23,392 bases of DNA from an uncultured virus (IMG/VR IMGVR_UViG_3300031673_000002) (lineage: Duplodnaviria; Heunggongvirae; Uroviricota; Caudoviricetes). The stretch lies in IMG/VR virus record IMGVR_UViG_3300031673_000002; one strand, given 5' to 3'. The notes under the pieces were generated by a model that was not told where the DNA came from, searched no databases, and saw only the letters and a list, made by a program, of their open reading frames with translations. A program made the position numbers and the translations under genes. Below are positions 2,788 through 22,563 of this stretch, in pieces (position 1 is the stretch's first letter; every line of letters starts with the position of its first letter).

Positions 2788-3309
2788 CTAGCGCTGGTGG
2801 AAGACGATGAGCTTCCCGCCGATTTCGACGGAGTTGGAACCGATCGTTTGGTCGCGCCCGTACTTCTCGTAGTCGAAATAGTCGCCGAGCTTGTCCCCCA
2901 TGAGACCTTCGTCGATGACGTGCTGCGCGTAGTCCTCTTCGTCGTCATGGGCACCGCCTACCCACTCGACGCCCTGCTCGGCGAGCTTCAACGCACGTTC
3001 GATGTCACCATCAGCCGCAATCACAGCAGCGGAAGCGAGGTCGTCGCCGTGCTCGTCAACCAGTTCTCCGAGCTTGACGAGGTCCGCAACCTCGATGCTA
3101 CGCCCAAGTTCCTTGACGGCTTCTGAGTCAAGGGCGCCATCGTCATCGACGATTTCGAGCTTGACGCGCTTGACGTCATCGCCGAACGCCTGTTCAAGCT
3201 GGTCCAGCACATTGTCGTCGAGAGAAACCTCGACCTCAGAGCCACGGGCACCACCGTGGGCTTTGACAGTCAGAGATGCGGAGCCACTTGCTTTGGTCTT
3301 GCGTGCCAT
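2788..3309 (-). CDS. ardA: ArdA-like antirestriction protein (divergent, C-terminal domains)
   Basis: Very acidic; DDEEDYAQHVIDEGLMGDKLGDYFDYEKYGRD matches the ArdA C-terminal Y-F-D-Y-E-x-Y-G-R-D motif; GAGGA SD before ATG 3309 (alternative start 3321). Confidence 0.75.
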   Translation of the reverse strand: MARKTKASGSASLTVKAHGGARGSEVEVSLDDNVLDQLEQAFGDDVKRVKLEIVDDDGALDSEAVKELGRSIEVADLVKLGELVDEHGDDLASAAVIAADGDIERALKLAEQGVEWVGGAHDDEEDYAQHVIDEGLMGDKLGDYFDYEKYGRDQTIGSNSVEIGGKLIVFHQR

Positions 3310-3317
3310 GCGTGTCC

Positions 3318-3908
3318 TCATACGTGCTTGCTGAAGGCGTAGGTTGAGCCGTTGGCGCTGACGAAGGTTACGTCTTGCTCCAAGTCGCGAGCGAGGCGAG
3401 CGAGGTCAACGTAGCTGAGCACCACTTCCGCACCCAGTTCCGACACGCCACCCATGTCGTCGATACGCTGGTAGGCGTAGTCCTCTTCGTCGTCGTAGAC
3501 TCCATAGCCTTCTTCCAGAAGGTCCATAGCCTCCGCAGGGTCGGAGCTGATAGCCATCGCAGCTTCAACCGCTTCGGGGTCGTGCTCCTCCTGCATGCGG
3601 GCGACGGTGGCGATGTCGTCCATGCTCGGGTGCTCACCGAGGTTCGGGAAGTCGTCGTAGTCGTGGATGGCCCACTCGTCGTCGGGGTTGCCGATGACTT
3701 CGGCGATCTGCTCACCAACGGTATCCGCGTCGGTGTCAGGGGTGATCCACTCCCCGACGAGCTTGCCGTTGTTGTACGCAGCGAGGTTTGCGACGTAGAT
3801 TTTACCTACGTCACCCCGTCCGGCCTTGACCTTCTTGCCACCGCCGTCGAGAGCATCGGCGGCGGTGATGAGCACCTTGGCGATCTGAACGCGGGTCTTC
3901 TTGTCCAT
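3318..3908 (-). CDS. ardA: ArdA antirestriction protein (DNA mimic) with N-terminal extension
   Basis: KIYVANLAAYNNGKLVGEWI and EWAIHDYD are hallmark ArdA motifs; YVDLARLARDL at C-terminus; AGGAG SD. Confidence 0.9.
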   Translation of the reverse strand: MDKKTRVQIAKVLITAADALDGGGKKVKAGRGDVGKIYVANLAAYNNGKLVGEWITPDTDADTVGEQIAEVIGNPDDEWAIHDYDDFPNLGEHPSMDDIATVARMQEEHDPEAVEAAMAISSDPAEAMDLLEEGYGVYDDEEDYAYQRIDDMGGVSELGAEVVLSYVDLARLARDLEQDVTFVSANGSTYAFSKHV

Positions 3909-3949
3909 GAGGTTGGTCACTCCTGGGGATAGGATGCGAAGACCTTGTA

Positions 3950-4255
3950 CTAGACGCCGAAGATCCTCTCCGCTTCCTCAAGCTGTGACAGCCGACCCCT
4001 GACCGACGATGTAGCTTCATCTTCATCATCTTCGGCAGTGAACAGCTTGACGATCTCCGCCAGCCGTTCCAGCGAGGGCAGCGACCTGTTTTGTTCCCAT
4101 CCCCACACCGCCTGACGCTGGACGCCGAGTATGTCTGCAAGTGCCCGGAGGCTCAAGTTGCGGGAGCACCTTTCACGGTTGATGTACTCGCCGATCTCGT
4201 CGGCAGGAGGGAGGGGGATATGGGTTCCGTCCTCATCGACAGCAATGAATCTCAT
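3950..4255 (-). CDS. XRE-family helix-turn-helix regulator
   Basis: IGEYINRER-x3-NLSLRALADILGVQRQAVWGWEQNRSLPSLERL HTH_3 pattern; ATGA overlap with helicase stop. Confidence 0.85.
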   Translation of the reverse strand: MRFIAVDEDGTHIPLPPADEIGEYINRERCSRNLSLRALADILGVQRQAVWGWEQNRSLPSLERLAEIVKLFTAEDDEDEATSSVRGRLSQLEEAERIFGV

Positions 4256-7008
4256 TCGCCCATCCTTTCTCTGTAGCGCTTACTTTGTCTTGCTTCATCT
4301 GCCATGTCGGCAAAGAGCTTTGTGACTGCGTTCGGGGCAGACGCTGCCGCAGCCCGAAGACCTCGGCGTCGCTTTTGAAGGCCACCGTCTTCTGACGCAC
4401 GAGCATCCCCTCTCATGACTTTAGCGGGGTCGCGCCCGTCTGCCACAAGTTCTATGTCCATGCCCTCCTCGATGAGAGCCTTGTGCGTTCCTCGGGCACA
4501 GCCGTACAAAAGCCCGTGTCCCTCATCGACGAAGTACCGGAAGATCGGGTGCTTCTTGCCTTCGTGATGACGACGAATTCTACCCATCATCTGCTGAAGC
4601 AGCGGAGCGTTGTTCATCGGGCACGTTGCGTAGAGCGTGTCGAGAACGGGGATGTCCACACCCAGCTTGAACACCTGGGTCGCGCAGATCACGCGAAGGC
4701 GACCCTCGCCCATCTCGTTGATGATCTTGTTACGCTTCGCCGTAGGCATACCGCCAGTTACGGCAGCAGCGGGCACTCCCAACTCATCCCGGATGTACTC
4801 CGCCTGCTCGACACACCAGTTCACGCGGTCGGAGAGGATCAATAGGTTACGACCATCCTTGATGTCTTGCTCCGCCCAACGCATGATGAGGTCGTTGCGG
4901 TCTGCCTGTCGGCAGAGGAAGTTGAGCATGTGGGGCCACTCGCTCTTGCGCTGGAAGCTAGACCCCTTGTAGTGGATCCCGGTCTGGATCATGTACGCGA
5001 CCACCCCAAGCTGCCGCGCCTTGCCGTGCGCGGTGATGGGGCCAACGATGTCGAATAGCGCTACGTCAAGCATGTCCTTACGCTTGGGGGTAGCGGTGGC
5101 TCCTCCGCGCCGCTTCGCGTGGAAGCCGTTGACGACGGAGGCTGCCTGCGGTGCGGCGAATACGTGGGCCTCGTCACAAAGCAGGTGGCCGAACTCCTTG
5201 CCCACCTCCTTGAGTGCCTTACGTCCGCCGTGAGAGATGAACGACTGCCAGGTCGCTACCGTGACGGGGTACAGGTTCTCAGGCCCCCTGTAGCGCCCTA
5301 CGATCTCGATGCCGAGCTTCTCCTCGACCTCCAGGCAGTTGGTCACGGGGGCGTACTCGGTGTCCTCTTCGTCCGCGTTCAGGGGGGACCCGTAGCGGAA
5401 CCGCGTGAGGAACTGCTCCGCCAAGGCGTCTGTGTGGACCAGCACGATGGTGCGTTGCTTGAGCGCCATGATGAGGTCTATCATCACGAAGGTGTTGTGC
5501 GTGACTACGTAGTCCTTGGTGACGTACAGATTATCTGGCGCGTCCACCGAGATGCAGACGCACTCAGCCGTGCCTACGTCCTCAACCTCCACCACCCTGC
5601 GGCATGGCAGGGTGCGCGGTCGACGCTCGTACACGGCGCGCTTCCTTGTCAACGTGAAGGGTGTGAAAGGAAGTTTCACGGTTACGTTGTAAGCGACTTG
5701 CCCAGTACGTCGCTCTCCCTTGTAGACGTAAGAGGTCTTCTTCTGTGACAGGCGGGCGGTACCTCCGAGCGAGCGGACAAGATGGACCGTGTCGAGCGCT
5801 AGCCGCTCACTCACCGTCGTCAGTTGCGACCCGCGAGTCCACCCGTCTGTGTCCATGATCCCGCACAACAACGCTCTCCGCTGCTCGACGCTAGAAGCCA
5901 TGTAGAGGATGGGGATGAATTTTGAGTTCGATAGACATCCCCAAAGACCAAGGTCTTTGAGTGCTTCCTTTACGGAAGACTTCCTCTCGTCGAAGCTGCC
6001 GGTCTCCCTTGAGATTCGATAGGAGGGAGCCCGGTCGCCCTTTATGGGGCTACAACGGAATCCCTCGGGGAGGCCGGCACTTACTGCTTGGACGATCTCC
6101 TCGTCTACAGTCGTAAACGTCGGAGAAGCTAGGTACTCCGCGAGGCATCCGTCCCCGAGTAGAACTCCAAGAACATACGGGTCCAGCGGAAGGTCTGCCT
6201 CTTCTCCCTGAACCTCGACCAAGGGGACACGCCATCGTGCTTGACCGCAGGGTTCCCGAAGGGTGTCCTGTACCTGCTGGGTCGTAAGCACACGTTGGGG
6301 CCTTCCTCGTCGCTTATCCCAGTCATTCGTTACCGACCATAAGTGATCGGCGTCTGCCCGCACGCTGGCTCCGTCTGAGAAGCGCACCAAGCGGACGGGT
6401 CTTTCACCCTGTGGGAACACGCCCGTGACTCTGCAAGGTTTCCCATTCGATCCAATAACCGAGTCGCCGACCTTGAGGGAGCCGATGGCGTGCCAGCCGC
6501 TAGGCGTCAGGACGACCTCATCAAGAGGCTGTGCCTTGCCGAACGCTGGAGCCGCCTTGAGGATCCCGTGTCCGGCCTTGAACCACTGCGCGATGGCATC
6601 GTTCTGGTAGTCCCTGGGCGTCATCAGGAGCTTCAGGGCGTTCGCGACCTTGGGATCCCAGGGAACGTCCACACGACGGTCCACAAGGGTCAGACCGAGC
6701 CTTTTGACCAGGGCTCTGGTTTTCTTCAAGTCGCCCAGGCAGAGCGCCCACCACTTGTCCCCGACCTCAGTCCAGTTCTTGATCACCATGTGATCCTGGG
6801 TTGTGAGGTCCTTCAACATGTCGTCGGTGTCGAGCCCGCCACCAAGCTGCTCACGCATTGCAGCGATCTGCTGCTGCATGATGCGACCCTCGGGCGTACG
6901 CAGTAGCTCGATGCTGTACTCCCATTCCGGAGCGAACTCCGAAGGGGTGCCAGCGACATGTCGCTTAGGGATCCACAGATAGTTGGATAGGATGGCTTTG
7001 CCTGTCAC
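4252..7008 (-). CDS. superfamily 2 (DEAH, UvsW/XPB/ResIII-like) helicase, intein-containing
   Basis: Q motif PRDYQ, Walker A APAFGK|T split by intein, motif II LLCDEAH, III ATATP, V GVDIP, VI QMMGRIRR; extein about 571 aa. Confidence 0.92.
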   Translation of the reverse strand: MTGKAILSNYLWIPKRHVAGTPSEFAPEWEYSIELLRTPEGRIMQQQIAAMREQLGGGLDTDDMLKDLTTQDHMVIKNWTEVGDKWWALCLGDLKKTRALVKRLGLTLVDRRVDVPWDPKVANALKLLMTPRDYQNDAIAQWFKAGHGILKAAPAFGKAQPLDEVVLTPSGWHAIGSLKVGDSVIGSNGKPCRVTGVFPQGERPVRLVRFSDGASVRADADHLWSVTNDWDKRRGRPQRVLTTQQVQDTLREPCGQARWRVPLVEVQGEEADLPLDPYVLGVLLGDGCLAEYLASPTFTTVDEEIVQAVSAGLPEGFRCSPIKGDRAPSYRISRETGSFDERKSSVKEALKDLGLWGCLSNSKFIPILYMASSVEQRRALLCGIMDTDGWTRGSQLTTVSERLALDTVHLVRSLGGTARLSQKKTSYVYKGERRTGQVAYNVTVKLPFTPFTLTRKRAVYERRPRTLPCRRVVEVEDVGTAECVCISVDAPDNLYVTKDYVVTHNTFVMIDLIMALKQRTIVLVHTDALAEQFLTRFRYGSPLNADEEDTEYAPVTNCLEVEEKLGIEIVGRYRGPENLYPVTVATWQSFISHGGRKALKEVGKEFGHLLCDEAHVFAAPQAASVVNGFHAKRRGGATATPKRKDMLDVALFDIVGPITAHGKARQLGVVAYMIQTGIHYKGSSFQRKSEWPHMLNFLCRQADRNDLIMRWAEQDIKDGRNLLILSDRVNWCVEQAEYIRDELGVPAAAVTGGMPTAKRNKIINEMGEGRLRVICATQVFKLGVDIPVLDTLYATCPMNNAPLLQQMMGRIRRHHEGKKHPIFRYFVDEGHGLLYGCARGTHKALIEEGMDIELVADGRDPAKVMRGDARASEDGGLQKRRRGLRAAAASAPNAVTKLFADMADEARQSKRYRERMGE
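5494..6534 (-). mobile_element. class 3 intein with LAGLIDADG homing endonuclease (347 aa)
   Basis: Starts AQPLD (Ala1), block B DHLW, LAGLIDADG motifs LGVLLGDG and LCGIMDTDG, block F CVCISVD, ends VVTHN before Thr+1. Confidence 0.9.
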
Positions 7009-8820: not shown

Positions 8821-8937
8821 TCAGCCGCGCGGATGCTTGCGTTGGCCGAAGGGGCGCCAATAATGCTGCATAAACATCACGGCACCCTGCTTCGCAGCGG
8901 GACAAGTCGTCTTGGTGATGTTGGTTGCAGTCTTCAT
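8821..8937 (-). CDS. putative leader peptide MKTATNITKTTCPAAKQGAVMFMQHYWRPFGQRKHPRG (may start at ATG 8877)
   Basis: Stop abuts tRNA-Trp 5' end; MFMQHYW matches the amino acids of the downstream tRNA block; SD weak. Confidence 0.6.
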   Translation of the reverse strand: MKTATNITKTTCPAAKQGAVMFMQHYWRPFGQRKHPRG

Positions 8938-9027: not shown

Positions 9028-9048
9028 CTGGAAAATGCAGATCCGGGA

Positions 9049-9324
9049 TCACTTTTTCTGGGATCGGCGCTTCTCCAGGAACGCCATCGTCTCTTTCATC
9101 GTGTAGTGCCACTTCATCTTGACGTGGGCCATACCCATGGCGATACCCCAGGCGTTACGGAACCTGTAGTCCAGGCTGAGCGGGTCACCGGGCAGCATCT
9201 TCTTCCCCAGCATACCGCGCCAGTACCCCACCGCGTGCCATGGGACCAAGAGCAGGTAGCGTCGTCGCCACAAGCGTACAGGCCAGCGCTGGTTCTGGAA
9301 GCGGTTGTCTATTGGCGGAGTCAT
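9049..9324 (-). CDS. hypothetical basic protein (91 aa)
   Basis: GAGGT SD; ATGA overlap with upstream gene; 3' part of ORF 9049..9570. Confidence 0.65.
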   Translation of the reverse strand: MTPPIDNRFQNQRWPVRLWRRRYLLLVPWHAVGYWRGMLGKKMLPGDPLSLDYRFRNAWGIAMGMAHVKMKWHYTMKETMAFLEKRRSQKK

Positions 9325-11524: not shown

Positions 11525-11536
11525 ATGAAGAAAAGC

Positions 11537-11669
11537 GACGAGCAAGTAGGTGACCTGGATGTTTTACGCGCTCTACCGATTGAGCTATCCGGCATCTGGT
11601 TGCCGGAGAGGGACTCGAACCCCCAACCACGCGAGTATGATTCGATAATCCAGTATCTGTCGGCTCGTC
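11537..11669 (-). ncRNA. yrlA: YrlA-type Y RNA
   Basis: GACGAGC-C-GA / CUUGCUCGUC; T arm GGGGG-UUCGAGU-CCCUC, closed stem UCCGGCA/UGCCGGA, D arm GCUC-AAUCGGUA-GAGC. Confidence 0.9.
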
Positions 11670-11678
11670 AAAGAAATA

Positions 11679-11810
11679 GTGAGCAAGTAGTCGCGAAGGG
11701 GACGCTAAACTGGTGCGCTGCCGGACTGCGCCACACGGCATTACTGCCATGGCAGGATTTGAACCTGCGACCCCCAGTGACCTTTGGGTAACCCTAAGCT
11801 GTCGGCTCAC
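11679..11810 (-). ncRNA. yrlA: YrlA-type Y RNA
   Basis: GUGAGC-C-GA / CUUGCUCAC; T arm GCAGG-UUCAAAU-CCUGC, closed stem CAUGGCA/UGCCGUG, D arm GCGC-AGUCCGGCA-GCGC. Confidence 0.9.
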
Positions 11811-11836
11811 AAACCTCTGTGAAATCGTTAGAAGGT

Positions 11837-11882: not shown

Positions 11883-13595
11883 TCAGCCTCGCGCGAACGA
11901 GGCCATGACCTGGGGCGTGTCGGCAGAGAAGCCGACAACATCGAGCATCCCTGCATCGCTGGGATCAGCGATGCTGAATCCCGTCGAGGTCATGCCCATG
12001 ACGATGAGCTTCGCTGCCCGTCCCATCGTCTGCCGGTACTGGCGGAGTGCCTGCACCGGGTGAATGTTTCCTGCCCAGGTCTCGTTGTCGGTGATCACCA
12101 CGAAGGTGTCCACTTCCAGCTTCTTCTCGGTTGCGTACGTCATCGGAAGAGCGCAGTCGGTTCCGCCGAAGGGCAGACCGGACACCGAGCGGACAGCGTC
12201 CGTCAGTGACATGCGGTCGTGGAGCTTCAACTCGCTGACCCCTGCTCCAAAGCGCGGACCCCACTGTGAGCGGCCCGGGCCTCCCGTGAATCCGATGACG
12301 TGGTGTGCCGGCTCGACGTTCATGGTCACGAGGGCCATGGCAGCCGATGCTTCACGGGCAGACAAGGGCGAACCCAGGATCTGTGCTCCCATGGAGCCCG
12401 ACACGTCGAGTGCGAGCAGCCAGTTCTGGTTCGTGGGCTCGACTGCCTTGAACGCCAGGTAGAACGCCTTGTCCAGTGCGGACACAATGTTCCTGTCAGC
12501 CGTCCAGACCAGCTTGCCCTTGTGACCGTGACCCTGCTCATAGGTTCGGAGCGCCATCAAGATAGCCATCGGGTGGACCCGTGCCCTCGCCAACTCGTTC
12601 GCGTCGCACAGGCGTGCGGTCACGAACTTGGAAGCATCCGACAGGGGCTTGGTGAGCCCGATGCTCGACATCTTGCCGAGGTTCCGAATCATGGCCGTCA
12701 CGGGCATGCCCTTGCCAGCCATGAGCAGCGCCTCCCAGACCGCGAGGTCGTTGAGGTGCTCCGTCTTCACGCACTCACGGGGCAGACCGTACTCGACGAT
12801 CAGCTTGGCCGTGTCGCGCGCTGAGGTCGCCTCTCGTGCCTTCTCCACGCCCTCGACCAGCCGGGGCAGGTCGCGCTTGTAGAGCCGCTTGTAGGTCCCC
12901 TCAGACAGCACGGTGCCGTCCTTCGTCGTCCGGGTCACCTTGCGCTGAGCGAGCTTGCCGTCAGCGATGAGGTACCGGAACAAGGTCTCGTGACCCTTGG
13001 TCGCGGGCGCCGTGCCCTTCTTCGCACCCATGTGAGACTTGGCGAGCAAGTCCTTGTGGGTCCAGCCCTCGCGGGACTGGTACTTGAAGAGGTCGAGCGC
13101 CAGACGGTCGGGCGACTTCGCGTTGTAGTACGACGCCACGGCCTTCGCCGTGATGCGACCCCAGCCGCCGAGAGCCTGGCAGGCTTCCGCGAACTGGAAG
13201 ATGTGCGTACCGATACGGCAGACCTTGGGCACGGCGTCCTTAGCAGCCCGACGGGTGTCGAGGTCGCCCTGCTTCATGGCCAACGCCAACGCGAAGATGG
13301 CCGGGTCGTTCTTGGGCGCGAGGCCCTGCTCCGACACCTCGACGATGCGAGCCACGGCACGAGCACCATCGGCCTTGATGCAGCGGATCACGCACTCGGC
13401 GTTCTCGATGGTCAGCTTGCGCTCGGAAGCGTAGTACGTACCCGCCTCGGCACCGAGGATCAGGAAGCGGTCGAACCGCGTCCAGTCGTCAACGGCGAAC
13501 ACGAAACCACCAGCGTTGTTCTTGACCTGCGTCGAGCCGGGGATCTTCTCCCGCTGCGAGGTCTTCTTCGTGTTGAAGTGCTGTGCGTACGTCAT
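11883..13595 (-). CDS. rsr: Ro60 / TROVE-domain RNA-binding protein (Rsr)
   Basis: QVKNNAGGFVF, RFLILGAEAGTYY, KYQSREGWTHKDLL, AMIRNLGKMS, RVHP, vWA MIDAS DVSGSM, GGTDCALPM, TDNETW; AGAGGAG SD. Confidence 0.97.
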   Translation of the reverse strand: MTYAQHFNTKKTSQREKIPGSTQVKNNAGGFVFAVDDWTRFDRFLILGAEAGTYYASERKLTIENAECVIRCIKADGARAVARIVEVSEQGLAPKNDPAIFALALAMKQGDLDTRRAAKDAVPKVCRIGTHIFQFAEACQALGGWGRITAKAVASYYNAKSPDRLALDLFKYQSREGWTHKDLLAKSHMGAKKGTAPATKGHETLFRYLIADGKLAQRKVTRTTKDGTVLSEGTYKRLYKRDLPRLVEGVEKAREATSARDTAKLIVEYGLPRECVKTEHLNDLAVWEALLMAGKGMPVTAMIRNLGKMSSIGLTKPLSDASKFVTARLCDANELARARVHPMAILMALRTYEQGHGHKGKLVWTADRNIVSALDKAFYLAFKAVEPTNQNWLLALDVSGSMGAQILGSPLSAREASAAMALVTMNVEPAHHVIGFTGGPGRSQWGPRFGAGVSELKLHDRMSLTDAVRSVSGLPFGGTDCALPMTYATEKKLEVDTFVVITDNETWAGNIHPVQALRQYRQTMGRAAKLIVMGMTSTGFSIADPSDAGMLDVVGFSADTPQVMASFARG

Positions 13596-15137: not shown

Positions 15138-15214
15138 TGGTGGAGTCGGGGACAGATCGAAGTCCCTACTTCGCCTTGCAAGGGCGGCGTTTTCGCCACG
15201 TAAACTACGACCCC
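15138..15214 (-). tRNA. trnA: tRNA-Ala(UGC), atypical T arm
   Basis: Loop CT-TGC-AA, G3.U70, CCA; T arm GGGAC-TTCGATCT-GTCCC. Confidence 0.86.
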
Positions 15215-15323
15215 AAAATGACCCTACTTCTTGCCTGGTGTGGGGAGGGTCACACCCACTTCCTGTTTTCCAGGGCTTCCACCTGGGAGCCCAATGCTTT
15301 CCTCCTTTTTGGGTAGGTGGTGA

Positions 15324-15488: not shown

Positions 15489-15725
15489 TCAGCCAGTACC
15501 GGCTTCAACGCGACGATCATTCGCATTGATCGCGGTCGTCCCGAAAATCGAGGTGCGCTTGGCGCAGATGAAGCTCTCTGCTGATTTTTGGTCTCGGTGG
15601 AGGGAATCGAACCCCCGTTTTCTTGCTCCCGAAGCAAGCGGCCTACCTGACTGGCCCACACCGAGGCACGGGGAAGCAGAGAGCTTCACTGGCGACGGCT
15701 TTGTAGGTGGGGTCATGGTGAACAT
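15489..15725 (-). CDS. putative 78-aa leader ORF reading through tRNA-Pro(CGG)
   Basis: ORF track; GAGG SD; five Pro before the tRNA-Pro; stop lies 8 nt before the switch at 15480. Confidence 0.4.
   Translation of the reverse strand: MFTMTPPTKPSPVKLSASPCLGVGQSGRPLASGARKRGFDSLHRDQKSAESFICAKRTSIFGTTAINANDRRVEAGTG
15589..15665 (-). tRNA. trnP: tRNA-Pro(CGG)
   Basis: Loop TT-CGG-GA, C1-G72, A73, CCA. Confidence 0.9.
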
Positions 15726-15763
15726 CGAAATCGAGCCTCGGTGCGCAAGGTGCGCGTTGGTCT

Positions 15764-15797
15764 TCTATAGGTAGTGCAAAGCAGACGGGGAAGTCAA
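15764..15797 (-). promoter_or_regulatory. putative promoter of the main tRNA-rsr-Y RNA operon
   Basis: TTGACT at 15792-15797 with A-rich upstream tract; -10 region CTACCTATAGA is imperfect. Confidence 0.4.
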
Positions 15798-15882
15798 CCG
15801 GCTTCTTCGCAATTTCTTGATCTTTTTTTCATCGCCATAAGATCCGGGCACTTACGTGGATCCAATGTCATGGATCAGCGTA

Positions 15883-18856: not shown

Positions 18857-19467
18857 TATTCGTCCCTCACTCTCTGCATGCGATGGGCAACAGGCTCGGC
18901 GTGCGCCAGCACGGGAGCTTCCAGTCCCCACGCTGCCCAACCCGGCGCCGACTCGCGGGCGAACAACTCAATCCGAGGCCGGTCGCCAAAGAGGCGGACG
19001 ATGTGGTCACGGACGATAGCCGGCTTCTTGCTATGCTTGCCTGGCCTCTGGTGGGGCACGACCTGTGGTACCGCAGCGTCGAGCAGAGGGAACGGGCGGC
19101 CCCTCTTCTGCGGCGTCGCCAGGAGACAAAGCTCCGATGTCGGCTTCGTCCCCGTCGGCGGAACACCCTGCCCGTGGATGAGACCGCCGTCCCGCCGCGT
19201 CTTCACCCAGTTGAAGGCAACACCTCGGTAGCACAGGCCCCAAGCAGCTATGGCCTGGAAGGCAAGATCGAGTCTCGGGCACGTTGCCCAGACGAAGAAG
19301 GCTCCGCGCTTCGGGTCACGTAGAAGGCCCTTCATGTCCAGTGCGCAGATCGACTCCATCGACATGAGGTCGTAGTGCTTGCCTGCCGCAGCGTCCTTGT
19401 TCGGGTCGCCGTACATTGGCCATGCAGGGTCAGCATAGATGATGTCGTAGTGCGGACCCCAGGTCAC
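18856..19467 (-). CDS. MT-A70 family adenine methyltransferase
   Basis: YDIIYADPAW (DPPW-like), HYDLMS, FFVWAT, AWG-x2-Y-x5-WVK, HSKKP, RIELFARE-x2-PGW-x2-WG; likely GTG start 19467 (ORF track start 19494). Confidence 0.92.
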   Translation of the reverse strand: MTWGPHYDIIYADPAWPMYGDPNKDAAAGKHYDLMSMESICALDMKGLLRDPKRGAFFVWATCPRLDLAFQAIAAWGLCYRGVAFNWVKTRRDGGLIHGQGVPPTGTKPTSELCLLATPQKRGRPFPLLDAAVPQVVPHQRPGKHSKKPAIVRDHIVRLFGDRPRIELFARESAPGWAAWGLEAPVLAHAEPVAHRMQRVRDE

Positions 19468-19601
19468 GTCGTCACCGCTCCGATCAGAAGGCACGTCGAG
19501 AGGACAAAGCGCACTCTAATGGGCGGGACAGCAACGCACAGTAAAAAAATCCCAAGTACCAAAAACAACCAAGAAGCAAAGAGAAGATTCCGATGACCCA
19601 A
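19464..19601 (-). CDS. possible small membrane peptide (45 aa)
   Basis: TTG start with GAGG upstream, hydrophobic LLFASWLFLVLGIFLLCVAV, GTGA overlap with methyltransferase start. Confidence 0.3.
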   Translation of the reverse strand: MGHRNLLFASWLFLVLGIFLLCVAVPPIRVRFVLSTCLLIGAVTT

Positions 19602-19841
19602 GTATTCCGCCTCGCTGATCTGAAGAGACGCTGCAAGCGCTGCCACAGGATCGACTGCGAGGACCACTGCGTACAATGTGGGAAAGACCACGATCACGAC
19701 GACAACGATTCCGATGTCTGTCTCTCGTGTGAAGCAAAGAACGACCCAATCGTAGTCGACGACGACAACGACCTGTGGCAGCCACCGGTCTACCCCGCCG
19801 ACGTGCTCTACGTAGTCAAGCACTACCGCAAGCAACGGTGA
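19593..19841 (+). CDS. small Cys-rich putative zinc-binding protein (82 aa)
   Basis: CxxC-x4-C-x3-CxxC...CxxC pattern, GC3-rich codons, ends just before the 19856 hairpin. Confidence 0.6.
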   Translation: MTQVFRLADLKRRCKRCHRIDCEDHCVQCGKDHDHDDNDSDVCLSCEAKNDPIVVDDDNDLWQPPVYPADVLYVVKHYRKQR

Positions 19842-19851
19842 CCAACAGCGC

Positions 19852-19892
19852 AAAACGGGATGCGTAGCTGGATGAGCCAGCTACGCATCCCG
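19852..19892 (-). terminator. terminator of the Leu/Ser tRNA block
   Basis: 16-bp perfect stem 19856-19871/19877-19892 followed by TTTT on minus strand. Confidence 0.78.
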
Positions 19893-19900
19893 GATCGCTA

Positions 19901-19988
19901 TGGCGGAGGGTGAGGGATTTGAACCCCCGGTGCCGCGAAGCACAACCGATTTCAAGTCGGTCGCAATCAGCCTCTCTGCCAACCCTCC
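19901..19988 (-). tRNA. trnS: tRNA-Ser(UGA)
   Basis: Loop CT-TGA-AA, long variable arm, G73, CCA. Confidence 0.93.
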
Positions 19989-20011
19989 ATAAATGGCGGC
20001 TACGGTGAGAA

Positions 20012-20098
20012 TGGAGGAAAGCAGCGGGATCGAACCGCACACCCGAAGGTGCCACTTGATTAGCAATCAAGGCCAGGACCAGACCTGGGTTACTTTCC
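20012..20098 (-). tRNA. trnS: tRNA-Ser(GCU), atypical D arm
   Basis: Loop TT-GCT-AA, long variable arm, A8, extended D stem CCAGG/CCTGG, CCA. Confidence 0.85.
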
Positions 20099-20102
20099 AT
20101 AG

Positions 20103-20197
20103 TGGCGGAAGGAGAGGGGGTCGAACCCTCACGACCCCTTTCGAGGTCAGTCCGATTTCGAGTCGGGTGCCGGCGCCATCTATCGGCTGGTCCTTCC
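20103..20197 (-). tRNA. trnS: tRNA-Ser(CGA)
   Basis: Loop CT-CGA-AA, long variable arm, G73, CCA. Confidence 0.88.
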
Positions 20198-20201
20198 AAA
20201 A

Positions 20202-20296
20202 TGGCGGATGGAGCGAGGGTCGAACTCGCACGACCCCTTTCGAGGTCAGCCCGATTTCCAATCGGGTGCCGGCGCCAACTATCGGCTGGCCCATCC
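20202..20296 (-). tRNA. trnS: tRNA-Ser(GGA)
   Basis: Loop TT-GGA-AA, long variable arm, G73, CCA. Confidence 0.88.
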
Positions 20297-20329
20297 AGAG
20301 AGAGAGAGCAAGTACCTTCTGCTCTTTCA

Positions 20330-20416
20330 TGGTACTCAAAACAGGACTTGAACCTGCACGCCCTTTCGGGCACAACCACCTCAAGGTTGCGTGTCTACCA
20401 GTTCCACCATTTGAGC
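20330..20416 (-). tRNA. trnL: tRNA-Leu(GAG)
   Basis: Loop TT-GAG-GT, long variable arm, A73, CCA. Confidence 0.92.
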
Positions 20417-20433
20417 AAACCTAAAACTATACT

Positions 20434-20520
20434 TGGTGTAAGCGGGGGGACTTGAACCCCCAGGTGGGTTTCCCCTTCGGAACTTAAACCCGCTGCGTCT
20501 GCCAATTCCGCCACGCTCAC
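20434..20520 (-). tRNA. trnL: tRNA-Leu(UAA)
   Basis: Loop TT-TAA-GT, long variable arm, A73, CCA. Confidence 0.88.
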
Positions 20521-20525
20521 ATAGT

Positions 20526-20611
20526 TGGTACCCCGAGGGGGACTTGAACCCCCACGCCCTTTCGAGCACTGCCTTCTGAGGGCAGCATGTCTGCAATTCC
20601 ATCACCGGGGC
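20526..20611 (-). tRNA. trnL: tRNA-Leu(CAG)
   Basis: Loop CT-CAG-AA, long variable arm, A73, CCA. Confidence 0.9.
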
Positions 20612-20614
20612 ACA

Positions 20615-20699
20615 TGGTACCGAGAGGGGGACTTGAACCCCCACGTCAAAAGACACCGGGGTTTGAAGCCAGCGCGTCTGCCAATTCCGCCATCTCGGC
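20615..20699 (-). tRNA. trnL: tRNA-Leu(CAA)
   Basis: Loop TT-CAA-AC, long variable arm, A73, CCA. Confidence 0.9.
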
Positions 20700-20800
20700 A
20701 CAGGTGGTGGTACGTATTCAGTTGTGGTCACGATGGCTGGTCGTTTTCGGGAGCCTTGGTCCTCATCTTCAATTCGCGAATTGCGATCGTCCCTTCCCAG

Positions 20801-20840
20801 AAAGAGAAAAACCCCCTCGCGGTCTCACCGGAGGGGGTTT
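20801..20840 (-). terminator. attenuator terminator upstream of Leu/Ser tRNA block
   Basis: AAACCCCCUC-CGGU-GAG-ACCG-C-GAGGGGGUUU followed by UUCUCUUU. Confidence 0.85.
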
Positions 20841-20866
20841 GTGTCGTCTTGGCCTGAGATCAGTTC

Positions 20867-20938
20867 CTAGACACACCCCTCCGTCGTCGAGCTAAGGCTC
20901 GACAGCAGCAGGAGGGATGACAAGGAGCGGAAGTTCAT
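20867..20938 (-). CDS. Ser/Leu leader peptide MNFRSLSSLLLLSSLSSTTEGCV
   Basis: 13 consecutive Ser/Leu codons; stop at the end of the antiterminator 5' strand; SD weak. Confidence 0.78.
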   Translation of the reverse strand: MNFRSLSSLLLLSSLSSTTEGCV

Positions 20939-20966
20939 CGGTATGGGGCCTGGCAAAAGAGATAGA

Positions 20967-21026
20967 GAGAGCAAGTAGTTGGAACGGGGGATTCTTTGGA
21001 CAGATAACCCGAACCGCGCGGCTCTC
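20967..21026 (-). ncRNA. short Y RNA-like (60 nt) heading the Leu/Ser tRNA transcript
   Basis: GAGAGC-C-G / CUUGCUCUC stem (one mismatch above bulge); CGGGUUAUC...CCCG inner stem. Confidence 0.65.
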
Positions 21027-21034
21027 GACTAGGA

Positions 21035-21064
21035 TGTGTAGCAGCACGGTGTGGTGCCCGTCAA
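21035..21064 (-). promoter_or_regulatory. putative sigma70-like promoter of Y RNA-leader-Leu/Ser block
   Basis: TTGACG-N18-TACACA with TGn extended -10; predicted start near Y RNA 5' end. Confidence 0.45.
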
Positions 21065-21376
21065 CTACAAAACGATCAGATCCTCCAGATCATTCAGGTC
21101 CGCGTCCAACCCAGCCTGAACGTCTGGATCTTGCTCGTGATCTTGCTTGGCTCTCTTGGAGGTTCCGTATTCTGCGCTAGGTATTCGATCTCGGCCTCGG
21201 TCCATGACGTTCTGGGCATGTTTTCTTTGATAGCAGATCCCGGATCTGTCAGTAAGGGCTAACCCCCTTCGTCCTTACCACAGTAGGAAGAAACACGTTC
21301 CCTCGGTGATGCTCTCCGGCGCACAAGCGAGGCTCGTCTGTTGACCCAACCAGGGTCGGGAAGGAGGTGAAAAGAC

Positions 21377-21808
21377 ATGACGTTCAAGATCGTCCCAGGG
21401 AGCCATCTCGACCATGGTCTGAGCAAGGCTCAGATCGAGTGGCTCAAGGAGACCTTCGCGAGCAGAGACGGGTTCTTCATCGAGTCGGTGGAGATGCCTG
21501 AGACGCTCGGTACGGTCCCCTGCGGGCTGTACGGTCCGGCGGCGGGTGATGAGCCGCTCCGCGACAGCGAGGTGTTCCTCGCGAAGCGTGGTGACCGTCC
21601 GTACGCATCGCGTATGATCGACAAGCCCATGCGACCCACGCGGACCGTAACGGTCATCGCAGGACCGGATGGTGACGAGAAGTGCGTGCTGTACACCGCT
21701 TTTGGTGGTGGACAGGCTCCCCGTGAGCCCGGCGACAAGTCCCTCTCCGCTGAGGAGAAGGTCGAGTCCGAGGGCTTCTGGGCAGAGCACGCGCTCTCCT
21801 CGCAGTAG
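21377..21808 (+). CDS. hypothetical protein (143 aa)
   Basis: Perfect AAGGAGGTGA SD; GC3-rich; motifs CGLYGP, LYTAFGG-x2-APREPGD, FWAEHAL. Confidence 0.85.
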   Translation: MTFKIVPGSHLDHGLSKAQIEWLKETFASRDGFFIESVEMPETLGTVPCGLYGPAAGDEPLRDSEVFLAKRGDRPYASRMIDKPMRPTRTVTVIAGPDGDEKCVLYTAFGGGQAPREPGDKSLSAEEKVESEGFWAEHALSSQ

Positions 21809-21865
21809 CGACAACCGCTGTTGCCCCAGGCCGGAGCCTAGGGCACAGCAACCTACAGTAGACAA

Positions 21866-21903
21866 GGACCCGGAACGCTGACGCAGATCAACGTTCCGGG
21901 TCC
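21866..21903 (+). terminator. GC-rich stem-loop after the 143-aa gene
   Basis: GGACCCGGAACG / CGTTCCGGGTCC 12-bp stem; poor U tract. Confidence 0.5.
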
Positions 21904-21948
21904 AGTCTGTTCAAGGGACCAAAGCCTCCCCGTAGGGGTAGCTGCTAC

Positions 21949-22563
21949 ATGCAAGACTTCATCGGGTACATCGTCAAGGAGTGCGTTAAACACGGAGTCG
22001 CGCTCAACCTGTACCCGACCGAGTACCACGAAGACTATTCAGGGTACTGGGATGACGAGGAGCGCTCCCTCACGGTGGCTACCGCGAACAAGAACTGGAT
22101 CGAGGTTCTCGCTCACGAGTTCGGTCACTTCCAGCAGTGGAAGGAGCGCAAGTTCTCTGACGGCGTCTACCAAGAAGCCTACGCAGTTTTCGACGAGTGG
22201 CTTGCTGGCCGGGCTCGTCTTCCCCCCGAGAAGGTAACGGAACTGGTTACAGCGATGCAGGAGTGCGAGATGGACGCTGAGCGTCGCGCTCACCGCCTGC
22301 TTCGCCGCTTCGAGGTCAAGGTCAACCTCGACCACTACATCCAGAAGTCTAACGCATACATCCTGTTCCACATCGTCATGGCAAAACATCGCCAGTGGTG
22401 CGACAAGGAATCCCCGTCGAGGGTCAAGGGGATCATCACCATGATGCCGACCAAGTTCATCACGGACTTCTCTACGCTACCGCACGGGTTCGAGGATCTC
22501 ATCCTCGAAAACTGCTTCGACCCCAAGCCCTGGCGTACCCGCCTACGACACTGGCTACGATAG
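21949..22563 (+). CDS. HEXXH zinc metallopeptidase-like protein (ImmA/IrrE-like motif)
   Basis: EVLAHEFGHFQQW with downstream ECEMDAERRA helix. Confidence 0.78.
   Translation: MQDFIGYIVKECVKHGVALNLYPTEYHEDYSGYWDDEERSLTVATANKNWIEVLAHEFGHFQQWKERKFSDGVYQEAYAVFDEWLAGRARLPPEKVTELVTAMQECEMDAERRAHRLLRRFEVKVNLDHYIQKSNAYILFHIVMAKHRQWCDKESPSRVKGIITMMPTKFITDFSTLPHGFEDLILENCFDPKPWRTRLRHWLR

Follow-up and report, generated by a model that had tools for sequence, protein, structure and literature searches.

The uncultured caudoviral record IMGVR_UViG_3300031673_000002, a stretch of 23,392 nucleotides (nt) whose full length is referred to here as the window, is phage-like, with a G+C content of 59%. ARAGORN at default settings finds 35 tRNA genes in it, every one on the minus strand, and an Rfam scan of the window reports 34 tRNAs over threshold and no other family. 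Our subject is a block of four Leu and four Ser tRNA genes and the leader that lies 5' of it, in which a short open reading frame (ORF) rich in Ser and Leu codons overlaps a series of alternative hairpins ending in a predicted terminator. A first-pass annotation of the same DNA had described this leader as a complete trp-style attenuator controlling the tRNAs. The features concerned are the following.

20938-20867, minus strand: leader mini-ORF MNFRSLSSLLLLSSLSSTTEGCV, 23 codons and a TAG stop, from sequence and translation
20888-20926, minus strand: run of 13 successive Ser/Leu codons (codons 5-17), eight different codons
20874-20919, minus strand: hairpin 1:2, outer stem CAUCCCUCC/GGAGGGGUG, inner hairpin at 20886-20903; minimum-energy fold; -26.3 kcal/mol alone
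20828-20884, minus strand: 2:3 antiterminator, CGGAGGGG with CCCCUCCG, stacked on a middle hairpin at 20839-20876; -27.6 kcal/mol alone
20799-20841, minus strand: hairpin 3:4, predicted intrinsic terminator, CCCCCUCCGG...GAGGGGG with U tract UUUUUCUCUUUCU; -23.3 kcal/mol alone
20615-20699, 20526-20611, 20434-20520 and 20330-20416, minus strand: tRNA-Leu CAA, CAG, UAA and GAG, respectively; ARAGORN default, Rfam above the gathering score
20202-20296 and 20103-20197, minus strand: tRNA-Ser GGA and CGA; ARAGORN -ps90 only, sub-threshold in Rfam, resembling annotated phage tRNA-Ser genes
20012-20098, minus strand: tRNA-Ser GCU(?); ARAGORN -ps80 only, parsed as UGA; GCU by hand parse
19901-19988, minus strand: tRNA-Ser UGA; ARAGORN default and Rfam
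19851-19891, minus strand: terminator that closes the Leu/Ser unit, a perfect 16-bp hairpin with GUUUUG directly 3' of it

The leader frame opens with ATG (20938) AAC TTC CGC, continues at codons 5-17 with TCC TTG TCA TCC CTC CTG CTG CTG TCG AGC CTT AGC TCG, and closes with ACG ACG GAG GGG TGT GTC before the TAG at 20869-20867; the Ser/Leu run thus reads on the minus strand exactly as first described. It is the longest run of two amino acids in the six frames of the window (the runner-up has 8), and a run of 13 arose in none of 300 dinucleotide shuffles of the whole window and in none of 20,000 dinucleotide shuffles of the 72-base frame, where the maximum was 11. Overall, 13 of the 22 residues are Ser or Leu (binomial P = 4.7e-5), and the leader has no similarity to tRNA.

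Up to the closing terminator, the unit downstream of the leader contains tRNA genes only (Leu x4, Ser x4), in agreement with the output first claimed for it, and the closing terminator itself is exceptionally stable (-43.5 kcal/mol for 66 nt, z = -7.79, 0 of 200 shuffles as stable). The leader codons sample seven of the eight downstream anticodons directly, as had been claimed, with UAA as the exception and with GCU depending on a hand parse: the tRNA at 20012-20098 has a 5-bp stem and a 7-nt loop that give GCU, whereas ARAGORN parses it as UGA, and its anticodon is therefore uncertain. The further suggestion that CTA is omitted from the leader because its tRNA is absent was over-read, in that a related leader in mycobacteriophage Bxz1 (below) contains CTA with no Leu(UAG) tRNA downstream. 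The three Ser-type tRNAs at 20012-20296 on the minus strand have unusual D arms and escape detection by ARAGORN at default settings, and the GGA and CGA genes are near-duplicates of one another. An independent promoter at 20700-20800, named in the first-pass annotation as the finding that would speak against control by the leader, was not seen: a consensus scan of the minus strand in 19700-22000 gave no promoter-like site, and no TANNNT hexamer is found by eye in 20700-20808. Promoter-like sites of the form TTGNNN-18-TACNNN picked by eye were unsupported by the consensus scan and were set aside; TTGACG occurs also within the Y-RNA-like stems described below.

The leader RNA can adopt hairpins 1:2, 2:3 and 3:4, which are mutually exclusive and of near-equal strength. 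The geometry originally proposed stands up to folding: its 1:2 pairs are identical to those of the minimum-energy fold, all 14 of the pairs named for 2:3 are Watson-Crick, the 3:4 hairpin is present with its U tract, and the TAG lies directly 3' of segment 2, at the end of which it had been placed. Directly 3' of hairpin 3:4 is TTTTTCTCTTTCT. The minimum-energy fold of 20795-20945 consists of 1:2 plus the terminator, with a z score of -3.99, and none of 200 shuffles is as stable. Segments CCCTCC, GGAGGG, CCCTCC and GAGGGG alternate within ~100 nt, which is unusual; GGAGGG occurs in four copies on the minus strand over the 23 kb, one of which is segment 2 and another the 5' end of tRNA-Ser(UGA).

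We also folded the nascent RNA up to 20826, at which point segment 4 has not yet emerged, with a ribosome footprint masked. When the A site is placed on any of codons 5-12, the nascent RNA is predicted to fold as 2:3, and when the ribosome is placed at the stop codon, it covers segment 2, leaving segment 3 predicted to be free for the terminator. The first of these predictions agrees with the claim that stalling frees 2:3 as far as codons 5-12 are concerned but not for codons 13-17, which lie too near to segment 2; the second agrees with the claim that full translation favors termination. With no ribosome on the nascent RNA, the 1:2 and 2:3 conformers differ little in energy, and the order of synthesis would therefore decide between them.

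These features suggest the following mechanism. As polymerase transcribes the 23-codon frame, hairpin 1:2 would form first. A ribosome that moves quickly would reach the TAG and cover segment 2, leaving segment 3 free so that 3:4 can form; if no ribosome loads, 1:2 would persist, segment 3 would again be free, and 3:4 would again form. Either way, the U-tract terminator would halt transcription ~110 nt before the first tRNA gene. When charged Ser or Leu tRNAs are scarce, a ribosome would stall early in the 13-codon run and cover segment 1, 2:3 would pair in place of the terminator, and transcription would read through into the eight tRNA genes, whose products would relieve the slow-decoding signal, so that tRNA supply would be regulated by feedback. 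That the frame is translated, that ribosomes stall on it, and that termination and read-through follow are each inferred from the anatomy of the sequence and from predicted folds, and we put at roughly 60% the probability that the leader senses ribosomes and increases read-through into the Leu and Ser tRNAs when Ser/Leu decoding is slow.

Support for the mini-frame comes from cluster C mycobacteriophages, in which a Ser/Leu mini-frame also lies directly 5' of a Ser/Leu tRNA block. By blastn, the element is present in 204 phage records, 193 of them at least 99% identical to the Bxz1 copy, 4 at 90-95% and 7 at 60-80%. Five of these records were read in detail, and in all five the mini-frame is unannotated; it encodes MFARLSLSSSLRLS in Bxz1 and EmToTheThree, MFALLSLSSSLRLS in Myrna and Phabba, and MFAFRLSLSSSLLS in Lukilu. 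The Phabba frame, which was found through a blast match to tRNA-Leu, reads ATG TTC GCA CTC CTG AGT TTG TCA TCC TCC CTA CGA CTT TCG TAG. An extended -10 sequence (TGnTACAGT, once with TACAAT) ends 7 nt 5' of the ATG in each of the five copies, and at the level of the motif this spacing is the layout of leaderless mycobacterial transcripts. The Bxz1- and Lukilu-type copies are 72% identical over ~100 nt and differ by two indels, each of 3 nt, and by five codon changes, all of them synonymous (GCA/GCT, TCA/TCC, TCC/TCA, TCC/TCG and TCG/AGC); in-frame indels together with exclusively synonymous changes are what selection on a translated frame predicts. A hairpin around the CTT codon is kept in the window, Bxz1 and Lukilu by three unrelated stems (GTCGAGC/GCTCGAC, CCTACG/CGTAGG and CGCTA/TAGCG, respectively).

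The window leader and the cluster C copies have in common the series ATG..TTC..CGC, TTGTCATCC and CTTAGCT, and common descent of the two is likely; if the likeness is instead due to convergence, the functional argument would be even stronger. The 5' flank of the first tRNA-Leu, ACAACTGAATA...CCACCT, is common to positions 20700-20730 (minus strand) of the window and to Phabba (2495-2520 of locus L015), which hints that the tRNA blocks and their flanks are homologous. In the IMG/VR search with the pattern TACAGT-N7-ATGTTCGC, the Ser/Leu frame was seen only in three cluster C genomes among the 80 loci read. We note that sequences resembling Ser tRNAs, unannotated and in some cases with an aberrant T arm, sit between tRNA-Ser(GCU) and the Leu tRNAs in cluster C genomes (Lukilu, 2810-3000 of locus L016; Bxz1, 1375-1470 of locus L019).

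Similar mini-frames precede other tRNA blocks. When the tRNA regions of Bxz1 were scanned with a regular expression (TANNNT, 5-8 nt, ATG or GTG), three matches were obtained, each directly 5' of a tRNA block (Ser/Leu, Gln/Asn and Pro-Trp-Tyr). The Gln/Asn frame and its Myrna counterpart, together with a second candidate in the window, are as follows.

15208-15243 of locus L102: Bxz1 frame MRTSSQQNRQQ, before tRNA-Gln(CUG) and tRNA-Asn(GUU) and behind the same TGCTACAGT promoter motif; unannotated
1520-1552 of locus L106: Myrna frame MRTNRLNRQQ, before tRNA-Gln and tRNA-Asn; unannotated, leaderless-type
8821-8937 of the window, minus strand: second candidate leader MKTATNITKTTCPAAKQGAVMFMQHYWRPFGQRKHPRG, 38 codons, its stop adjoining tRNA-Trp, the first gene of a Trp-Gln-Tyr-His-Gln-Cys-Phe-Met block

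Gln and Asn make up 5 of 10 residues in the Bxz1 frame (binomial P = 4.5e-5) and 4 of 9 in the Myrna frame (P = 4.8e-4), and the Gln/Asn leader element is present in 208 records. This leader and the 5' end of tRNA-Gln form one long hairpin, with z scores of -3.81 in Bxz1 and -3.53 in Myrna (0 of 200 shuffles as stable in each case). The second candidate in the window contains MFMQHYW, seven codons drawn from the amino acid set of its block and the longest such run in the window (the runner-up has 5), and a run of at least seven from the Trp-to-Met set arises anywhere in 26 of 300 shuffles; over the whole peptide the enrichment is modest (12/37, P = 0.014). A 12-bp hairpin covers its stop and the first 5 nt of tRNA-Trp, and no match to the 38-residue peptide was found by tblastn against phages. 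The order of MFMQHYW is approximately the reverse of the tRNA order, and this leader contains no Leu or Ser. Candidates before a third window block that begins Pro-Asp-Ala (15650-15871, minus strand) were rejected, cognate enrichment being unconvincing; of these, the frame MFTMTPPTKPSPVK... starts at ATG 15725 and runs into tRNA-Pro, and the frame MTLDPRK... lies behind TGATACGCT, the same extended -10 as that before the Bxz1 Pro-Trp-Tyr block.

Several observations weigh against control of the tRNAs by a ribosome-sensing attenuator. First, there is neither a Shine-Dalgarno sequence nor a TANNNT hexamer or other leaderless-type -10 sequence 5' of the window ATG. Second, the full-length RNA at equilibrium keeps the terminator even with segment 1 masked, and forcing 2:3 costs ~10 kcal/mol; any switch must therefore operate kinetically, as the classical ones do. 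Third, from codon positions and the expected footprint, stalls at codons 13-17 should cover segment 2 and favor termination, which would restrict signaling to the first two thirds of the run. Fourth, the similarity between the window and Bxz1 leaders is weak, with 31 of 2000 shuffles reaching the local-alignment score. Fifth, the cluster C copies have no U tract, and their last hairpin is formed with the 5' end of tRNA-Ser (in Bxz1, GCUUGCCCUC of the leader is predicted to pair with GAGGGUGAGC of the tRNA); termination is therefore not the conserved mechanism, and of the initial description as a trp-style attenuator, the four-segment anatomy holds and is classical but U-tract termination does not extend to the mycobacteriophage copies. 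Sixth, the Bxz1-type leader is significantly similar to the 3' half of the tRNA-Ser next to it, with 27 of 32 aligned bases matching and a score that 1 of 2000 shuffles reaches, and it probably arose from a duplicated tRNA half. Such an origin would explain part of its Ser codons, TCC TCC CTN corresponding to the acceptor strand, and why it is complementary to G-rich acceptor strands; both the Ser/Leu content and the complementarity of C-rich to G-rich segments may thus in part have been inherited rather than selected. Seventh, the third Bxz1 mini-frame, MFKSSGIGRPESPRWRYQPSLGR, before Pro-Trp-Tyr, shows no significant enrichment (5/22, P = 0.14). Finally, a metagenome scan with an alignment of Ro60, a homologue of which is encoded in the window, gave 80 loci among the matches listed (~42-60% identity, 617 kb), and a Ser/Leu run of at least 6 within 400 nt 5' of a Ser/Leu tRNA was seen in 0 of these 80; many of them carry tRNA arrays, and Ro60 relatives at 64-81% identity, nearer to the window phage than the 42-60% set, do exist.

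Many of these points would also be expected if the leader were an untranslated spacer, with hairpins that mark the end of an upstream unit or act as processing signals, tRNAs transcribed from a promoter that the scan cannot see, and a frame that is a by-product of C/T-rich, partly tRNA-derived hairpin sequence. The window ATG without recognizable initiation signals, the tRNA-Ser-like Bxz1 leader, the dominance of the terminator at equilibrium and the absence from the 80 Ro60-linked loci all suit such a spacer, and phage promoters may indeed not fit the consensus used. In addition, the C/T-rich tail of the Y-RNA-like element (20955-20978) yields a trivial run of seven Ser/Leu codons in the same frame as the leader, a reading that is probably incidental. 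However, a spacer does not readily account for a run of 13 that never recurs in shuffles of its own 72 bases, for a frame, start and stop that are kept between copies only 72% identical, or for mini-frames that begin exactly 7 nt after an extended -10 sequence in five of five cluster C copies. Nor does a tRNA-remnant origin extend to all of the leaders, since it holds for the Bxz1-type Ser/Leu leader only: no tRNA similarity is found in the Lukilu leader, the Gln/Asn leader or either of the window leaders, yet these match their downstream tRNAs. On balance, we consider the spacer unlikely, although it is the strongest of the alternatives.

A still less likely explanation is that the frame is translated but the decision is taken after transcription, with leader pairing controlling the folding of the tRNA precursor, its access to RNase P or RNase E, or its stability. 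The complementarity of cluster C leaders to the 5' end of the first tRNA (Ser in Bxz1, Gln in Bxz1 and Myrna) fits well with this, as does the 12-bp hairpin at tRNA-Trp in the window, and there is precedent in the mycobacterial Cys leaders, which are reported to unmask a sequestered site without termination (bioRxiv 10.1101/834739). The window Ser/Leu leader is different: it has a canonical G+C-rich hairpin and U tract well upstream of the first tRNA and shows no complementarity to tRNA-Leu(CAA), and termination therefore fits it better than sequestration. It is very improbable that the product is a small hydrophobic peptide, rich in Ser and Leu and functional in its own right, and that its place before the tRNAs is coincidental; the frame is open, conserved in type and similar to a short hydrophobic segment, but the peptides have only 14-23 residues and no family match (in a search that covered the neighboring frames and the 38-residue one), their sequence varies freely provided that Ser and Leu are kept, and the sister mini-frames encode very different peptides that match their own tRNAs.

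Taking the ribosome-sensing leader as the preferred interpretation, the closest known systems are the leader-peptide attenuators trpL, hisL, leuL, pheL, thrL, the ilv leaders and pheST, which combine a short ORF containing regulatory codons with RNA segments 1-4 and a 3:4 terminator. The window element is like these in its regulatory codon run, its mutually exclusive 1:2, 2:3 and 3:4 pairings, its U-tract terminator, and a stop codon placed such that a terminating ribosome would mask segment 2; as in the multivalent thr and ilv leaders, two amino acids are regulatory. It departs from them in lying in a phage, in having no visible Shine-Dalgarno sequence, and in a run that holds eight codons, read by seven of the eight downstream tRNAs, rather than one repeated codon. 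Above all, the genes regulated are tRNAs and not enzymes of biosynthesis or synthetases, and it is therefore not a classical member of the group. A second point of comparison is the T-box, which binds uncharged tRNA directly and without a ribosome, and which controls synthetase and amino acid genes rather than tRNA genes. The two are alike in that the supply of charged tRNA is sensed and a terminator/antiterminator choice is made on genes of the translation apparatus, but no T-box or other cis-regulatory Rfam family matches at the gathering score, or at E values up to 5 in 19000-22000.

Mycobacteria also use leaderless short ORFs as ribosome-stalling attenuators, and in the polycysteine leaders of Mycobacterium smegmatis, ribosome stalling is reported to block the duplex by which a downstream site is otherwise sequestered (bioRxiv 10.1101/834739). 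The cluster C copies resemble these in having the leaderless-type TGnTACAGT 7 nt before the ATG and sensor codons, in belonging to phages of the same host genus, and in that a stalled ribosome is proposed to block a sequestering RNA duplex. They differ in that the sensor codons are Ser/Leu or Gln/Asn rather than Cys, and in that the 5' end of a tRNA or, for the window, a terminator stands in place of the ribosome-binding site. The window copy is further removed, lacking a leaderless promoter; a TANNNT hexamer 6-8 nt before the start is absent from the window and present, at the level of the motif, in cluster C. Because the window has a terminator whereas elsewhere the 5' end of a tRNA appears to be sequestered, the conserved feature seems to be the sensor frame, with an output device that varies.

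The setting of the leader is also informative as to the phage. Interspersed with the window tRNAs are genes for Ro60, two ArdA proteins, an MT-A70 methylase, an AAA ATPase, an HNH endonuclease and a helicase, of which the following were mapped.

11883-13595: Ro60 homologue (TROVE and vWA_Ro60)
2788-3920, minus strand: two adjacent ArdA antirestriction genes
4252-7008, minus strand: helicase (ResIII/Helicase_C), 918 residues, with LAGLIDADG_3 and Hom_end matches in mid-protein

The mid-protein LAGLIDADG_3/Hom_end matches suggest an intein or a homing-endonuclease insertion in the helicase. Among named phages, the nearest Ro60 relatives are those of Gordonia phage Cashline (47%) and of Bxz1-type mycobacteriophages (44%), and an actinobacterial host is therefore likely. 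At the DNA level no close relatives were found among sequenced phages or IMG/VR contigs: with the leader region or the whole window as query against phages, blastn gave chance or tRNA matches only, and exact window patterns had 0 matches in IMG/VR. Single-protein queries of IMG/VR with the AAA ATPase, a 196-residue upstream frame and Ro60 returned no relatives, and of 14 loci with MT-A70 relatives, the 12 scanned have no tRNA cluster, although one has a lone tRNA-Pro on the opposite strand. PHROGs gave no match for eight frames neighboring the leader. The window DNA is present solely in soil-metagenome DNA runs and is listed for no RNA run; of four DNA runs compared, one contig is identical across 20721-21092, and the remaining matches are tRNA look-alikes from other organisms, which yields no informative variants.

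Upstream of the leader frame are two further elements.

20975-21068, minus strand: candidate Y-RNA-like long stem-loop, 5' GUAGUUGACGGG with CCCGUUCCAACUAC
20955-20978, minus strand: CTACTTGCTC motif and a C/T-rich tail ending in UUUU

The Y RNA claimed to lie 28 nt upstream corresponds to a candidate element 28-36 nt from the leader. Its long stem is plausibly Y-like (-33.1 kcal/mol, z = -2.21, 5 of 200 shuffles as stable) and the window encodes Ro60, but no Rfam family matches the element at the gathering score, or at E values up to 5 in 19000-22000. With up to one mismatch, CTACTTGCTC occurs in seven copies, all on the minus strand (8106, 9250, 11293, 11540, 11681, 20306 and 20969), a number reached in 0 of 100 shuffles; several copies lie just 5' of a tRNA, and the motif may represent the 3' strand of a Y-like RNA or act in processing as a signal. 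Directly 3' of the Ro60 gene (11530-11830, minus strand) are two YrlA-like elements, in each of which a long 5'/3' stem ends in CTACTTGCTC and a tRNA-like T arm lies internally (GCAGGUUCAAAUCCUGC and GGGGGUUCGAGUCCCUC); neither element has an Rfam match. A near-palindromic motif of the GATCCGGGATC type is found at borders of transcription units (~21236-21250, ~9036-9050 and ~19886-19898, minus strand) and could be an operator or a small hairpin.

The reason that phages carry tRNAs has been debated for decades, the main options being codon compensation and replacement of tRNAs destroyed by host defenses; to our knowledge, the control of phage tRNA genes is essentially unknown. In our literature searches, one of them dominated by unrelated papers, no description of tRNA genes under the control of a leader peptide came up. 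The tRNAs of cluster C1 phages, the same tRNA clusters considered here, have been proposed to replace host tRNAs that are depleted in infection (eLife 2023, PMC10264068), and such depletion would give the stall signal that a leader of this type could read. That study treats changes in anticodon loops rather than regulation of the tRNA genes, and its main text does not contain "leader", "promoter" or "attenuat".

We therefore put forward a broader proposal only tentatively, and at less than even odds: that tRNA blocks in unrelated phage lineages are each gated by a mini-frame of their own and together act as a "tRNA-stat", which would sense lost decoding capacity (as caused by anticodon nucleases, for example) and make the matching replacement tRNAs. 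The decision would be made in the window by the terminator/antiterminator pair, and in cluster C by keeping the leader from pairing with the first tRNA and so misfolding its 5' half; the Ser/Leu leader itself would have come from a duplicated 3' half of tRNA-Ser. Because the mini-frame is present in ~200 sequenced cluster C phages, and Bxz1-type phages grow on Mycobacterium smegmatis, a harmless laboratory host, it can be tested at the bench. If the proposed control is correct, leader-peptide attenuation would extend from amino acid and synthetase genes to tRNA genes, and a phage equipped with such a leader would measure decoding capacity directly and make its tRNAs on demand.

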